In this document: in pieces, positions 5,068 to 54,998 of the stretch
How positions within the stretch are numbered: the stretch's first letter is position 1
How the letters are laid out: the number at the start of each line of letters is the position of its first letter
NCBI RefSeq assembly: GCF_016903815.1
Contig: NZ_CP069973.1
Source of the DNA: Escherichia coli
Lineage (GTDB): Bacteria; Pseudomonadota; Gammaproteobacteria; Enterobacterales; Enterobacteriaceae
Reading direction: 5' to 3' (one strand)
Length of the DNA: 64,000 bases
Position numbers and translations under genes: made by a program
Notes under the pieces: generated by a model
Told to the model about the DNA's origin: nothing
Seen by the model: only the letters and a program-made list of their open reading frames with translations
Database searches by the model: none

Positions 5068-5163
5068 TGTAGTGATTTTGCACGCAGCACGTACTGTCAG
5101 AGAAATCAGTGCTCTGACAGTACGCAAGATCTTCTCATACTCTTACGATCTGCAATATTATCC

Positions 5164-15457: not shown

Positions 15458-15994
15458 TTAACTGCGCGGGTAATGGATGAGGGAATGAAAATGTACGGTT
15501 TGCTCCCCTCCATTACGATAGACATGCGTGACGTCTGCAGCAAATCGAGCGCCTTCCCCACAATTAAGGCTCTGCCATTCACCATCAACGCACAGATCAA
15601 GTTGTCCATCAATGACGACAACATGTTCGATTCCCCCCTTCTCATGGGGCGTCGATTCGCTTATTGCACCAGGTGCCATCTGAATCGAGAAGTGTTCAAA
15701 GCAGAGTTGTGGATCATAAGGAAACAGTGAAGTGATCACCATCGCCTGCTGTTGTGGATCATAAACTGAAGGCGTAGCGGACTGCGGCGGAGAAATAAAT
15801 GTTGAAAATGGCACGTTCAACCCGGTGGCAATTTTCCATAATGTCGCGACCGTCGGGCTGGATTCATTACGCTCAATCTGCCCTAACATCGCTTTAGAAA
15901 CGCCCGTCGCTTCTGCCAGTCGCGAAAGACTCCAGCCGCGATGCTGACGTAGTTGTTTAAGTGTGGTGGATAAAAAGCGAGCGAGATTCTCCAT
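15458..15994 (-). CDS. ydcN: XRE-family HTH regulator with C-terminal cupin domain YdcN
   Basis: 178 aa; HTH (LSRLAEATGVSKAMLGQIERNES) plus cupin. Confidence 0.85.
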   Translation of the reverse strand: MENLARFLSTTLKQLRQHRGWSLSRLAEATGVSKAMLGQIERNESSPTVATLWKIATGLNVPFSTFISPPQSATPSVYDPQQQAMVITSLFPYDPQLCFEHFSIQMAPGAISESTPHEKGGIEHVVVIDGQLDLCVDGEWQSLNCGEGARFAADVTHVYRNGGEQTVHFHSLIHYPRS

Positions 15995-16085
15995 GCGACT
16001 CCTCCGGCAAAACGGAAGTTTATCACTTGTGCGTTATAACGGACAAATGCTACGGTACCTGTACGTTATAACGCACGAGGTGACT

Positions 16086-17258
16086 ATGCGTCTGTTTTCT
16101 ATTCCTCCACCCACGCTACTGGCGGGGTTTCTGGCGGTATTAATTGGCTACGCCAGTTCAGCGGCAATAATCTGGCAAGCAGCGATTGTCGCCGGAGCCA
16201 CCACTGCACAAATCTCTGGCTGGATGACGGCGCTGGGGCTGGCAATGGGCGTCAGTACGCTGACTCTGACATTATGGTATCGCGTACCTGTTCTCACCGC
16301 ATGGTCAACGCCTGGCGCGGCTTTGTTGGTCACCGGATTACAGGGACTAACACTTAACGAAGCCATCGGCGTTTTTATTGTCACCAACGCGTTAATAGTC
16401 CTCTGCGGCATAACGGGACTCTTTGCTCGTCTGATGCGCATTATTCCGCACTCGCTTGCGGCGGCAATGCTTGCCGGGATTTTATTACGCTTTGGTTTAC
16501 AGGCGTTTGCCAGTCTGGATGATCAATTTACGTTGTGTGGCAGTATGTTGCTGGTATGGCTGGCAACCAAGGCCGTTGCGCCGCGCTATGCGGTAATTGC
16601 CGCGATGATTATTGGGATCGTCATCGTTATCGCGCAAGGTGACGTTGTCACAAATGATGTTGTCTTTAAACCCGTTCTCCCCACTTATATTACCCCTGAT
16701 TTTGCGTTTGCTCACAGCCTGAGCGTTGCACTCCCCCTTTTTCTGGTGACGATGGCATCGCAAAACGCACCGGGTATCGCAGCAATGAAAGCCGCCGGAT
16801 ATTCAGCTCCTGTTTCGCCATTAATTGTATTTACTGGATTGCTGGCACTGGTTTTTTCCCCTTTCGGCGTTTATTCCGTCGGTATTGCGGCAATCACCGC
16901 GGCTATTTGTCAAAGCCCGGAAGCGCATCCGGATAAAGATCAACGTTGGCTGGCAGCTGCCGTTGCAGGCATTTTTTATTTGCTCGCAGGTCTTTTTGGT
17001 AGTGCTATTACCGGGATGATGGCTGCCCTGCCCGTAAGTTGGATCCAGATGCTGGCAGGTCTGGCGCTGTTGAGTACCATTGGCGGCAGTTTGTATCAGG
17101 CGCTGCATAATGAGCGTGAGCGCGACGCGGCGGTGGTGGCATTTCTGGTAACGGCAAGTGGATTGACGCTGGTCGGGATTGGTTCTGCGTTTTGGGGATT
17201 AATTGCCGGAGGCGTTTGTTACGTGGTGTTGAATTTAATCGCTGACAGAAACCGATAA
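16086..17258 (+). CDS. ydcO: BenE-family benzoate-type membrane transporter YdcO
   Basis: Polytopic membrane protein; start set at MRLFSIPPPTLLAG (ORF-track upstream extension rejected). Confidence 0.85.
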   Translation: MRLFSIPPPTLLAGFLAVLIGYASSAAIIWQAAIVAGATTAQISGWMTALGLAMGVSTLTLTLWYRVPVLTAWSTPGAALLVTGLQGLTLNEAIGVFIVTNALIVLCGITGLFARLMRIIPHSLAAAMLAGILLRFGLQAFASLDDQFTLCGSMLLVWLATKAVAPRYAVIAAMIIGIVIVIAQGDVVTNDVVFKPVLPTYITPDFAFAHSLSVALPLFLVTMASQNAPGIAAMKAAGYSAPVSPLIVFTGLLALVFSPFGVYSVGIAAITAAICQSPEAHPDKDQRWLAAAVAGIFYLLAGLFGSAITGMMAALPVSWIQMLAGLALLSTIGGSLYQALHNERERDAAVVAFLVTASGLTLVGIGSAFWGLIAGGVCYVVLNLIADRNR

Positions 17259-17265
17259 TAAATAT

Positions 17266-17290
17266 CCTCCGGCATAGCCGGAGGTTTTTC
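17266..17290 (+). terminator. Rho-independent terminator of ydcO (cctccggcatagccggagg + TTTTT)
   Basis: Perfect 8-bp stem, 4-nt loop, T-run, 8 nt after ydcO stop. Confidence 0.6.
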
Positions 17291-17962
17291 AAATGCGCCT
17301 ATAAGGCTCTCTTACCAGCCGCGCCCTAACAGGCGCACACGATCTGACATTTGCATCCAACTTCGTTACTTACGGCCCGTAAACGGGCTGCCCGGATAGG
17401 GAATCGATAACTGCTCTCCCATTTTATCCTCTTCAAGCTGGTGCTTTATGTAATCCTGTATCTTCGCCGTGTTCTTACCCACCGTATCGACGTAGTACCC
17501 TCTGCACCAGAACTCCCTGTTCCTGTATTTGAATTTCAAATCACCAAACTGCTCGTAAAGCATCAGACTGCTTTTCCCTTTCAGATATCCCATAAAGCCG
17601 GATACGCTCATTTTGGGCGGGATCTCCACAAGCATATGGATATGATCTGCACAGCATTCAGCTTCCAGAATCCGTACACTTTTCCACTCACACAGCTTTC
17701 TCAAAATACTGCCTATTGCTCTACGCTTCTCTCTGTAGAACACCTGTCTTCGGTATTTTGGCGCAAAAACTATGTGATATTTACAGTTCCATCGGGTGTG
17801 CGCTAAGCTCTTTTCGTTCCCCATTGGGACCCCCTTTTGATTTCTTGTTTGACACTTGCAGTTGCCAGACCGCAAGGTGTTTTAACAAATCAAAAGGGGT
17901 TTTAATAACTGGCTTAAAGCTGAAAGCTTTCCGGAACCCCCAGCCTAGCTGGGGGTTTTCTG
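17291..17962 (-). mobile_element. IS200-type insertion sequence (IS200/IS605 family, tnpA only); boundaries approximate
   Basis: Y1/HUH TnpA ORF flanked by about 75 and 135 bp non-coding arms; perfect 10-bp stem hairpin aacccccagc/gctgggggtt at 17935-17957, like the IS200 left-end structure. Confidence 0.7.
17366..17824 (-). CDS. tnpA: IS200 transposase TnpA (Y1 HUH single-strand transposase)
   Basis: 152 aa MGNEKSLAHTRWNCKYHIVFAPKYRR...; HUH motif (HIHML) and catalytic Tyr region; ORF-track 169 aa form has upstream extension. Confidence 0.88.
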   Translation of the reverse strand: MGNEKSLAHTRWNCKYHIVFAPKYRRQVFYREKRRAIGSILRKLCEWKSVRILEAECCADHIHMLVEIPPKMSVSGFMGYLKGKSSLMLYEQFGDLKFKYRNREFWCRGYYVDTVGKNTAKIQDYIKHQLEEDKMGEQLSIPYPGSPFTGRK

Positions 17963-18001: not shown

Positions 18002-18670
18002 CTACTTTTTGTTAACGTCAAACATGGTGGCATCGGTCGCCATGTCATCAATAACTTGTTTAATATTTTCGAAAGCCATTGGCGTACTTTCGTTATTCAG
18101 GTCTTTACCTTCGCCCTGACGAACGACTTTGATAACCGGTTTATTAGTCGCTGCATCAATCAGCTCACCTTCAAAATAGAGGCGAGTATCCATGGTACGG
18201 TGGCCTGTAGCCATTTGCGTCCCCGCAACCACTAATGCAACAGGAACCACTTCATAGAATTGCAGCCCTTCTTTGCTGGTATCTACACCGGTAATGGCCC
18301 CACGGAAAATCAGACTATGCGGCCCAGCGGTGGTAACCAGTGGTTTACGCTGCGCTATCGCTTCTTTCATTTCGGTGTTGGTATAGTTCAAAATTTTATC
18401 CAGAACTTTCTGCCCTACCTGGGTAGAAGGTTTCGGTACCGGATAATAAGTGATTGGGTTCCAGACGATGCTGTCATATTTGCTTTGATCAAAACTTGGG
18501 TCTACCCAACGTAAAACAGGTTTACCTGTTGCCGAGGTTGTTTCTTTTAAATCAGAGTAATTGTTTAAAAAACCAGAATATTTATCTGGCTGGGTGATTT
18601 TAGAGGCACAACCAGACAGAGCCAACAAGCCGCATAAAGCTGCAACTTTCGCAAATGATGTGGTACGCAT
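18002..18670 (-). CDS. ydcL: Lipoprotein YdcL (DUF3313)
   Basis: 222 aa with lipobox LALSGC; synteny. Confidence 0.9.
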   Translation of the reverse strand: MRTTSFAKVAALCGLLALSGCASKITQPDKYSGFLNNYSDLKETTSATGKPVLRWVDPSFDQSKYDSIVWNPITYYPVPKPSTQVGQKVLDKILNYTNTEMKEAIAQRKPLVTTAGPHSLIFRGAITGVDTSKEGLQFYEVVPVALVVAGTQMATGHRTMDTRLYFEGELIDAATNKPVIKVVRQGEGKDLNNESTPMAFENIKQVIDDMATDATMFDVNKK

Positions 18671-18972
18671 GAATAGTTTCCTGAGATGATTATATTACTT
18701 TCTAAGTTATAGCAAAAAGCGCCGCTTCGTGTTGTGGCAAAAAAAGTGTTGGTGAAAATAAATTTTTTAGCCCCTTTTCAGACGACATAGTCAATGCCGA
18801 AAAAGGGGCTAAGTCAATCATCAGTAGTTAAATTTCAGTAAGTTAAGCGGCTAAAAAACTTCGACTACTGTGATTAATTTCACATCCCTTCGATAAAAAA
18901 TATGCTTACCGAAAAGAAGAACAGTAAACCATCTCAGCGTGGGGAATTTTCACGCGCTTTGTTCTTACCGGA

Positions 18973-19566
18973 TCATTTTTTACGTGCCAGCATCGTGGCG
19001 AAACGCAGTTTAATACGATTACCGTTGGCGTCGGTGCGGTGCAGCTCGCCGACGTCTTCATTGTATTTCACCATCTCCCAGCCTTCGTAATATCGACGTA
19101 ATTCCCCCTCTTTGAAGGCAAACGGGAAGCCGACGGTACATGGATAATCAGCGGTATCCATCGCCGCCACAATCAGGTTGTAACCGCCAGGTTTAGTGCA
19201 ACGTTGCATATTGGCAATCAGCCCTGGGATGGTTTTAGCCTCAAGGAACATCAGCACCACAGTCGAAAGAATAAAATCGTACTGTCCATCAAATGTGAGG
19301 TTATTCAGATCAACGACCCGGGTGTGTAAATTATCCAGATTTTCAATGGACTTAATGCGCTCGACGTTGGCGATACTCATGGCATTTTTATCCCATGCGT
19401 CAACATCATAACCATTGGCTGCCAGGTAAAGACTGTTACGACCATTGCCACAGCCCAGATCCAGCGTTTTACCCGGTTTAACCACTTTCACCGCTTCCAG
19501 TACTTCAGAGTGTGTGCGGGTTAATTCATATTTATCAGTAAAATAGTTTTCGTCACGAATGATCAT
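18973..19566 (-). CDS. tehB: Tellurite resistance SAM-dependent methyltransferase TehB
   Basis: 197 aa; SAM-binding motif [11 protein letters not shown]. Confidence 0.92.
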
Positions 19567-20555
19567 TCTTTGTCCTCTGCTTTCATTAAAACGGCGCGCT
19601 CGGTTCTGACTAACAATTTTCCCTGCATCAGAAGCGCAAAAGTACGGATGAGCAGTATTGCAATAATAAAATTGGTAAAGATAAACAGCGGCACCGCCAG
19701 CGTATGGAAAAATCCATTATCGCTGCCACTCCCCAGATGCAAACCGGTGGTTGCCAGTGCAGATACGCCGAACGAGAAACTCCAGAATGAAGCATTAAAT
19801 GGCTGGGAGAGATACCATGGCATCAGACGTAGCATAAACAGCAGTTGCAGCAGTCCATAACCGAAAAGCATTTTCGCCAGCGTGTCACCCTCGCCGCCGT
19901 TGACGCTCAGCCAGGCACTACAGGCCACCAGCGCAGGAGCGAGCTGAATGCCGAGTGATGTCCGCAGCGCCGTGGGTAATTCTCCCGAACTGCGCAGACG
20001 CTGCAAGATCACCGGTTCAAGGCTTAGCCATGAGAAAACGCCTGCGCCTAAAAACACCAGACCGGCGTCGGTGTAGCCCAACGCACCACAGGCCATTGCG
20101 CTGATAAAGTTGTTGGCAACTGTCGGCAGATACAGTCCAGGCGTGGTAGCTTCTTCAGGGTGAGATCCGCGCCATAATCCCGCAGTTTGCCATGCGGCAT
20201 AAGCCAGTTGCACCACGACACCAAAACTGAACAGGCACACCGCCAGTGGGCGAAACCACGGAACAAAACCAATCGCCACCAGCATCGTCGTTGCCGGAAA
20301 CAAACTCACAAAACTGCTCAGCACTGGATGGCGCACTTCCGCCAGCACGCTATGCGGAAAGCGGATGAGTCGGGTAATAAATGCGCTAGTTAATAATCCC
20401 CAGATGATCATCGCCAGAATCACCAGCCCATCCCCTAACCAGTGGCTGACCTGCCAAACCTGGCTGGCATAGCGCCAGGCAAATCCCATCCCTATCGTCC
20501 CCAACACAATACCAAAGTAGCCTGCCGGCAAATTGAGCACTTTATCGCTCTGCAT
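19563..20555 (-). CDS. tehA: Tellurite resistance membrane protein TehA (TDT/SLAC1-like channel)
   Basis: Polytopic; start trimmed to [19 protein letters not shown] (330 aa); overlaps tehB start by 4 nt. Confidence 0.9.
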
Positions 20556-20678
20556 CTTCTTACTCATTTTGTTTAATTTATAAAGTATATTTGAAATGCA
20601 TTTTATGGAATTTTCTCGAGCATAGCCAGAGCCGCAGAATTTGCTACGGTTATAGTAAGTCACCTGTGGGAAAACGCT

Positions 20679-54597: not shown

Positions 54598-54998
54598 ATG
54601 AAATTCCTCATAAATAGATGATTACGCAGCCCAGATAAACTGCACAGGGTTAAATAGTTACAAATATTCGAAATCTGGATATTGTTTTTAACAGAATAAA
54701 TATATTGATTTAGCGAATATATTTATTCATTAAGTCAATGCATCTTTTCTTTAATTTATATTTTTAACGCATTTATTTCAACTTAAAATATGGCGCAATT
54801 GAGATTGAATCCGATAACACCGATGAATTAAATAATGCAATTAATTCATGAAATAAATAAATTATCATGTGAATGAAGCATTCATCATCGGCATCTATAT
54901 GAAATTAAATGAAAAATAATTCTCAATAGCATTGCAGTTAATATTGAATATTTCAGGAGGTACAACCAGGGAGATTTTTTTCGACGAATACCGACTTA

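Follow-up and report, generated by a model that had tools for sequence, protein, structure and literature searches.

The intergenic region between tehB and ydcL in Escherichia coli contains a long inverted repeat that is unannotated, is present in a single copy and is found in about 99.6% of complete E. coli genomes. What is this element, and why does it stand where it does? We addressed these questions in a stretch of E. coli DNA of 64,000 nucleotides, which we refer to as the window, and in the corresponding loci of related bacteria. The answer that we favor, with moderate confidence, is that the repeat specifies a real stem-loop and that this stem-loop is the 3' stem-loop of the tehAB transcript, derived from a terminator, lacking a U-tract and overlapped by the distal promoter of ydcL. 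The genes and the spacer concerned are as follows.

19563–20663, minus strand: tehA
18973–19566, minus strand: tehB, the upstream gene, whose transcript would enter the hairpin
18671–18972: the tehB–ydcL spacer, 302 nt
18002–18670, minus strand: ydcL, the downstream gene, encoding a DUF3313 lipoprotein

The names tehB and ydcL had been assigned in a preliminary description of this DNA, and both assignments proved correct: TehB is an NCBIfam match (403 bits), and in RefSeq the homologous spacer is flanked by genes annotated as ydcL and tehB.

The inverted repeat and its fold

The repeat consists of two perfect arms of 12 nt, TTAGCCCCTTTT at 18767–18778 and its exact reverse complement AAAAGGGGCTAA at 18801–18812, which are separated by 22 nt. 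The preliminary description had recognized the repeat and positioned its first arm correctly, but it had placed the second arm one nucleotide off, at 18800–18811, and had counted one nucleotide too few both for the arms (11 bp) and for the spacer between them (21 nt). In Markov-simulated 64-kb windows, whose dinucleotide make-up was matched to that of the window, 0.21 perfect inverted repeats of at least 12 nt with a spacer of 3–40 nt are expected per window by chance, and the probability of finding one inverted repeat of at least 12 nt within the 302-nt tehB–ydcL spacer is approximately 0.002. Read on the strand of the genes, the repeat and its surroundings are composed of the following elements.

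18822–18870, minus strand: a second, weaker stem-loop (CAGTAGT...ACTACTG), located between the gene fossil described below and the inverted repeat
18821 (ATG), minus strand: start of a 39-codon open reading frame (ORF) that runs through the hairpin
18801–18812, minus strand: 5' arm of the stem, sense 5'-TTAGCCCCTTTT-3', whose core, GCCCC, is invariant in 11 Escherichia sequences
18779–18800, minus strand: loop or spacer of 22 nt, TCGGCATTGACTATGTCGTCTG, which includes an inner 6-bp stem and the genus-invariant CATTGACTAT
18767–18778, minus strand: 3' arm of the stem, sense 5'-AAAAGGGGCTAA-3', corresponding to +3 to +14 of the distal ydcL transcript (transcription start = +1)

RNA of the minus strand, which is the sense strand for both tehB and ydcL, is predicted to fold with an energy of −26.2 kcal/mol (z = −6.4), and RNA of the plus strand with −19.3 kcal/mol (z = −4.6); each strand was compared with 200 shuffles, and both beat all 200. 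The inner 6-bp stem, CGGCAU/AUGUCG, needs one G·U pair and hence can form on the minus strand only. The composite stem of the hairpin is 19 bp. The result is a stable, GC-containing stem-loop located 161 nt past the tehB stop codon. That the minus strand is the relevant one had been overlooked in the preliminary description, as had the correspondence of the hairpin's position to that of terminators elsewhere and the presence of a gene fossil just upstream. The flanking blocks that it had called partially complementary do pair, 18760–18776 being complementary to 18845–18861 over 17 nt (88%). Within the weaker stem-loop lies AAGTTTTTTAGCCGCTT, which repeats the 3' arm together with its tail in inverted and imperfect form; this complementarity is not kept in other Escherichia species.

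As had been stated, no T-run adjoins the 3' side of the repeat on either strand: the gene-sense strand continues with AAAAAATTTATTTT and the plus strand with GTCAATCATC, and the tails considered in the test for a U-tract, AAAAAAUUUAUUUU on the sense strand and GUCAAUCAUC on the plus strand, do not contain one. The earlier view that the repeat is no classical terminator is thus borne out on both strands, and efficient intrinsic termination is unlikely because the U-tract is missing. A scan for consensus promoters and terminators detected nothing on the sense strand at the hairpin and no terminator at the repeat; the scan allows promoter spacers of 16–18 nt only and is therefore blind to the distal ydcL promoter, whose spacer is 19 nt. 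A search of Rfam 15 at a permissive E-value identified no family at the hairpin, the lone overlap being a chance-level match to a eukaryotic snoRNA (17.8 bits against a gathering threshold of 70).

The spacer as a whole occurs in 5412 of 5426 complete E. coli genomes, at a median of one place per genome (n = 5412), and the 50-nt core is likewise found at a median of one place. The exact 50-nt version with the perfect 12/12 repeat is a minority allele, being present in at most 31% of 5403 E. coli genomes. K-12 and three of five other sampled strains, including O127:H6, have a G at the equivalent of 18768, which creates a U·G wobble on the sense strand, and the 3' arm of K-12, O127:H6 and two further sampled strains contains CTGA, not CTAA. 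Membership in a repeat family of the REP, BIME or ERIC type was rejected, as the element is single-copy rather than dispersed in many copies. It resembles REP and BIME hairpins in being an intergenic stem-loop between co-oriented genes for which a function as an exonuclease barrier is proposed, and it differs from them in being single-copy and in belonging to no repeat family. An origin from a mobile element is also unsupported: distant BLAST searches returned nothing similar to the spacer from a phage collection, and from a plasmid collection they returned five Escherichia records only, three of the five chromosome-sized and all of them non-mobilizable, which are evidently copies of the E. 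coli chromosome.

Hairpins in other genera and a gene fossil

We inspected the region preceding the start codon in 80 enterobacterial YdcL-encoding loci, with one genome per species, or 81 when the window is included. In 64 of these 81 loci (the window among them) the interval from −160 to −90, counted from the ydcL ATG, has a best hairpin that is strong, with a ΔG of −11 or lower. The usual position of the hairpin is −140 to −95 from the ydcL start, and its sequences are unrelated between genera. In the comparison across the Enterobacteriaceae that had been called for, the hairpins thus have their position in common and not their sequence. They can be said to occupy an equivalent place across genera because a conserved block at about −75 anchors their position.

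18731–18745, minus strand: conserved block TTTTTTTGCCACAAC, invariant in Escherichia and also recognizable, some 75 nt upstream of the ydcL ATG, in other genera

This downstream anchor is also given as TTTTTTGYCACAAC, and its Enterobacter counterpart is TTTTTTGTCACAAC. The block is too distant from the −10 sequence of the proximal ydcL promoter (see below) to be its −35 sequence, and for that reason it may be a regulator site.

The gene upstream of ydcL is not the same in all of these bacteria. In 32 loci it encodes a paralogue of DppA (920 bits against the NCBIfam DppA model, which is under the equivalog cut-off of 1005 bits), and the hairpin begins 10–25 nt past its stop codon. A U-rich tail follows 24 of the 27 strong hairpins located downstream of the DppA-like gene, as in ACUGCCCGG...CCGGGCAGU CUUUUU, and these U-tailed hairpins are canonical intrinsic terminators. 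In Escherichia, Citrobacter, Salmonella, and Kluyvera the upstream gene is tehB, and the tail of the hairpin is purine-rich, for example AAAAAAUUUAUUUU or AGAAAAAAUUGUGC, and in Escherichia A-rich; the first six bases past the stem include 0–3 U residues in six Escherichia loci versus 4–5 in relatives. The Escherichia hairpin therefore has two features in common with the canonical intrinsic terminators of Enterobacter, Leclercia, Raoultella, the Klebsiella oxytoca group, Yokenella, and Trabulsiella, namely an equal position with respect to the ydcL ATG and the conserved block, and a GC-containing stem-loop downstream of a stop codon, which in Escherichia is that of the fossil. It differs from those terminators in having AAAAAAUUUAUUUU where the U-tract stood, and the hairpins of Citrobacter, Salmonella, and Kluyvera are likewise devoid of U-tracts. 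We also note a Klebsiella pneumoniae locus (L058) in which the 266-nt tehB–ydcL spacer, unlike that of most relatives, has no strong hairpin, its best fold being −4 kcal/mol.

A trace of the DppA-like gene is present in the window itself.

18913–18878, minus strand: fossil of the last 12 codons of a gene for a substrate-binding protein of the DppA-paralogue type, FGKHIFYRRDVK, detected by tblastn and codon comparison

Compared with the spacers of Citrobacter and Salmonella, that of Escherichia has about 140 nt more, and the extra part holds TTCGGTAAGCATATTTTTTATCGAAGGGATGTGAAA, which reads FGKHIFYRRDVK and corresponds to the very C-terminal end of the DppA paralogue (FGKHIFYQVDIK followed by the stop). 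Among all tblastn matches of the DppA-like protein within the 64 kb of the window, the fossil is the best; it is located on the strand of the hairpin and just upstream of it. Codon-level comparison revealed that its stop codon is still present in two other Escherichia species (L003 and L004). Meanwhile, an intact gene for the DppA paralogue is found directly upstream of ydcL in Enterobacter, Raoultella, the K. oxytoca group, Leclercia, and others. Given the fossil and the retention of its stop codon in two species, we conclude that a DppA-like gene once ended here and that the hairpin stands at the place of its terminator. A tblastx comparison of the flanks of loci having the DppA-like gene with the window revealed no similarity. 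The hairpin of Escherichia begins about 62 nt past the fossil stop codon, versus 10–25 nt where other genera have the gene intact; on that account the hairpin may have replaced the terminator of the DppA-like gene at the equivalent site rather than descended strictly from it.

These observations suggest the following history. By position, the hairpin would descend from the intrinsic terminator found at the end of whichever gene precedes ydcL in the Enterobacteriaceae. In the lineage leading to Escherichia, the DppA-like gene upstream of ydcL would have been deleted down to its last 12 codons, tehAB would then have become the upstream neighbor of ydcL, and the hairpin would have lost its U-tract, so as no longer to be a canonical terminator.

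The ydcL promoters within the spacer

Published transcript maps of K-12 locate the starts of ydcL transcription relative to the hairpin. In the operon table of a SMRT-Cappable-seq study (PMC6131387, Supplementary Data 2), tehA–tehB is transcribed from a start at 1500535, as it is in RegulonDB, ydcL alone is transcribed from 1502347 and 1502428, and ydcL–insQ is transcribed from 1502347. The table contains no tehAB–ydcL unit, tehA–tehB ending before ydcL. Transferred to the window, the two ydcL starts define a distal and a proximal promoter.

18812–18817, minus strand: −35-like hexamer TTGACT of the presumptive distal promoter, invariant in 11 Escherichia sequences
18787–18792, minus strand: putative −10-like hexamer GACTAT of the distal ydcL promoter, invariant in Escherichia
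18780, minus strand: distal ydcL transcription start (K-12 NC_000913.3 1502347, ±1 nt, SMRT-Cappable-seq)
18706–18714, minus strand: extended −10 sequence TGCTATAAC of the proximal ydcL promoter, with a start at 18699 (K-12 1502428)

Position 1502428 of K-12 is an A located 7 nt after TGCTATAAC, and this agreement validates the coordinate frame. The proximal −10 region resembles those of the σS/σ70 type, and a peak obtained by SELEX with RpoS holoenzyme falls within the tehB/ydcL spacer (PMC5493296). The start-site tables of Cappable-seq 2016 contained no matching ydcL entry among the entries listed.

The distal start at 18780 is the last-but-one base of the repeat's spacer and lies 2 nt before the 3' arm. 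The preliminary description had considered that the repeat might belong to the ydcL promoter region, and a published ydcL start is indeed found inside it, between the loop and the 3' arm. The GACTAT hexamer ends 7 nt before the mapped start and matches at three of six positions, with both A2 and T6 kept. The TTGACT hexamer lies 19 nt upstream of GACTAT, a non-optimal spacing, and overlaps the first base of the 5' arm. In this arrangement, the 5' arm fills most of the 19-nt promoter spacer, the −10-like hexamer is within the loop, and the sequence transcribed first is that of the 3' arm. That the distal ydcL promoter overlaps the repeat is supported by one experimental dataset and by the invariance of the two hexamers. 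We envision that the promoter would have taken over the DNA of the hairpin, with its −35 sequence at the foot of the 5' arm, its −10 sequence in the loop and its start just before the 3' arm.

Possible selection on the stem, a proposed role at the tehAB 3' end, and rival explanations

How is the repeat maintained within the genus? We aligned 11 sequences, representing six E. coli strains, E. albertii, and four other Escherichia lineages. The spacer has diverged between the tehB stop codon and about position 136 and is near-invariant over the remaining stretch up to the ydcL ATG; both copies of ATTGACT, CATTGACTAT, and GCCCC/GGGG are among the columns without variation. In one lineage (L001) everything upstream of about position 136 has been deleted and the remainder has been kept. 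This pattern fits a promoter region that starts about 56 nt before the distal ydcL start. The stem is less conserved than the downstream promoter block, 10 of its 26 positions being variable within the genus. Standard pairs account for 91% of the pair cells in the 11-sequence alignment; two-sided covariation was not found within Escherichia, and column shuffles pair as well as the real alignment. Most of the one-sided changes seen in the outer stem are compatible with wobble pairing on the sense strand (U-A, U·G, or C-G at one pair and C-G to U·G at another). In addition, every other Escherichia lineage folds better than the mean of copies bearing an equal number of random substitutions, with individual P values of 0.025–0.35, and the folds of the five non-coli lineages range from −18 to −26 kcal/mol. 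A naive Fisher combination of fold retention, calculated by hand over lineages that are not independent, yields a P value of approximately 0.03. Selection on pairing within the genus is thereby suggested. Because there is no two-sided covariation and the stem is more variable than the promoter block, the stem core could also have been conserved incidentally, through constraint on the promoter or for want of time to diverge.

An RNA structural element, one of the two possibilities raised in the preliminary description, is plausible for tehAB read-through RNA only and not for the ydcL leader, since neither ydcL start is upstream of the hairpin, one being inside it and the other beyond it. In E. 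coli today, the hairpin would accordingly form only in RNA that reads through from tehAB, where it would most likely serve as a 3' stem-loop, that is, as a barrier to 3'-to-5' exonucleases that marks or assists the 3' end of tehAB RNA. Termination itself would have a low efficiency or would depend on Rho, and it would occur in the G-poor, unstructured stretch past the hairpin. The 96 nt after the hairpin have a C/G ratio of 1.8 and fold worse than shuffles (z = +2.2). A test of 18760–18683 for rut character gave a C/G ratio of 1.8–2.0 and a fold weaker than that of shuffles, yet the region is AT-rich and has only about 21% C, and no more than 96 nt remain before the ydcL start. There is precedent for such an arrangement: stable, U-less stem-loops that block PNPase and RNase II, with rut sequences just downstream, have been documented as steady-state 3' ends of E. 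coli transcripts whose termination depends on Rho (PMC6061677). Like those protective 3' stem-loops (Dar and Sorek 2018, PMC6061677), the tehAB hairpin is stable, is located past a stop codon, lacks a U-tract and is followed by a G-poor, unstructured region, and it lies at the end of the tehA–tehB unit. Unlike them, it is unusually long, with its 19-bp composite stem, and it overlaps the promoter of the next gene; its present-day role in tehAB 3'-end formation and stability is one that we infer. No RNA 3' end at the hairpin was found among the entries listed for tehB, ydcL, and K-12 1502100–1502499 in Adams 2021, TERMITe, and SMRT-Cappable-seq Supplementary Data 1, and expression of tehAB may be too weak for 3'-end detection under the conditions of those datasets.

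On this account, the hairpin is an ordinary intergenic stem-loop that had gone unannotated until now, and it neither represents a new kind of element nor opens a long-standing question. Its value is modest: an unannotated spacer gains an anatomy, in which two ydcL promoters accompany the fossil of a gene and the relic of a terminator that lacks its U-tract, and the case illustrates how intrinsic terminators can decay to U-less stem-loops after gene deletion and have their DNA reused as a promoter.

A serious rival, which we judge to be unlikely, is that the hairpin is a functionless relic, a decaying terminator kept by the youth of the genus and by purifying selection on the promoter block. 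The absence of significant covariation and the variability of the stem, which exceeds that of the downstream block, are what this explanation would lead one to expect, and it is also consistent with the minority status of the perfect repeat, with the loss of the U-tract, and with the lack of a 3' end among the entries listed in the tables searched (Adams 2021 and TERMITe). It is at odds with the retention of folding energy in each of the five non-coli lineages above the mean of equally mutated random copies, with the bias of substitutions toward sense-strand wobble pairs, and with the persistence of hairpins at this position across many genera despite complete turnover of their sequence.

A DNA-level explanation is that the arms form a putative operator, at which a dimeric or tetrameric regulator would bracket the −10 sequence and start of the distal ydcL promoter and repress or remodel it. 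The repeat is centered on the −10-like hexamer and overlaps the mapped start, as is the case for palindromic repressor operators placed over −10 sequences and starts; neither arm varies in its core within the genus; the non-optimal 19-nt promoter spacer could require a factor; and ydcL expression falls in a rob mutant (PMC7537768) and responds to iron-related conditions (PMC10665441). However, arms of 12 nt that are 34 bp apart, center to center, are atypical for a single operator, and the outer three base pairs of the arms vary in accordance with the wobble rules of RNA rather than as identical half-sites. An operator would also leave unexplained both the inner stem with its G·U pair and the positional match to the terminators of other genera. 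The comparison with known regulator sites that had been recommended covered the marbox of MarA, SoxS, and Rob, AYNGCACNNWNNRYYAAAY, which had no match with up to two mismatches in 18671–18972; matches in the whole window were at chance level. No cognate regulator or motif match is known for the arms, and a literature search returned no binding data for a ydcL-specific regulator and, for the spacer, the RpoS-holoenzyme SELEX peak only. We consider the operator explanation doubtful. We give less credence still to a composite of the two ideas, in which the former terminator hairpin would have been exapted both as the operator of a putative regulator and as a transcript-level insulator that couples ydcL to tehAB or uncouples it from them; were this so, the read-through hairpin would end tehAB transcripts exactly where ydcL transcripts begin.

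Two further proposals are very improbable. The first is that the spacer encodes an independent sRNA, for which the predicted plus-strand Ssr15 of Shigella flexneri is a candidate, or a small protein. Ssr15 stems from a promoter-plus-terminator prediction that spans the homologous SF1779/tehB spacer (PMC4782007), but the table in that paper gives no confirmation by RT-PCR, folding is weaker on the plus strand, and there is no Rfam match. As for a small protein, the ATG-initiated ORF of 39 codons that traverses the hairpin has no Shine–Dalgarno sequence and begins upstream of the mapped start, and a conserved small ORF was rejected, as indels of 1 nt interrupt the frame in both O157:H7 and E. 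albertii. The second is that the hairpin, lying as it does upstream of ydcL, is a cis-regulatory RNA of the ydcL 5' leader (an attenuator, riboswitch, or thermometer), for which an alternative pairing of 18845–18861 with the 3' arm might be invoked, but the starts at 18780 and 18699 both exclude the 5' arm (18801–18812) from ydcL mRNA, the leader of transcripts begun at the distal start has less structure than shuffled sequences do (z = +2.2), Rfam offers no match, and the alternative pairing is not conserved in other Escherichia, on which ground the attenuator idea was rejected.

Finally, we note several features elsewhere in the window. Perfect inverted repeats of at least 12 nt number five in the window, versus about 0.2 expected. 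Besides those of the tehB–ydcL and sutR/ydcO spacers, they are located, with short spacers, at 5090–5124, 47412–47441, and 54694–54728. The repeat in the divergent sutR/ydcO spacer is bounded by the following genes.

15458–15994, minus strand: sutR
16087 (ATG), plus strand: start of ydcO

Its arms are perfect over 13 nt (16029–16041 and 16064–16076, GTGCGTTATAACG-N22-CGTTATAACGCAC), and each includes the 10-bp palindrome CGTTATAACG, so that two palindromic sites are found 32 bp apart. These paired palindromes are plausibly candidate operators for SutR. Downstream of ydcO, a partial match to the Rfam family Ysr202 (17218–17289, plus strand) scored 28.6 bits against a gathering threshold of 315; a Ysr202 sRNA was rejected, the match covering only the canonical, U-tailed terminator hairpin after ydcO. 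Immediately past the ydcL stop codon, an IS200-type tnpA is present at 17366–17875 (minus strand), with a full-length match to Rfam STnc490 at 17834–17957 (146 bits), and in K-12 the equivalent spot after ydcL is occupied by IS609, a member of the IS200/IS605 family. The presence of these two elements, both directly after ydcL, suggests that the end of this gene is an insertion hot spot.
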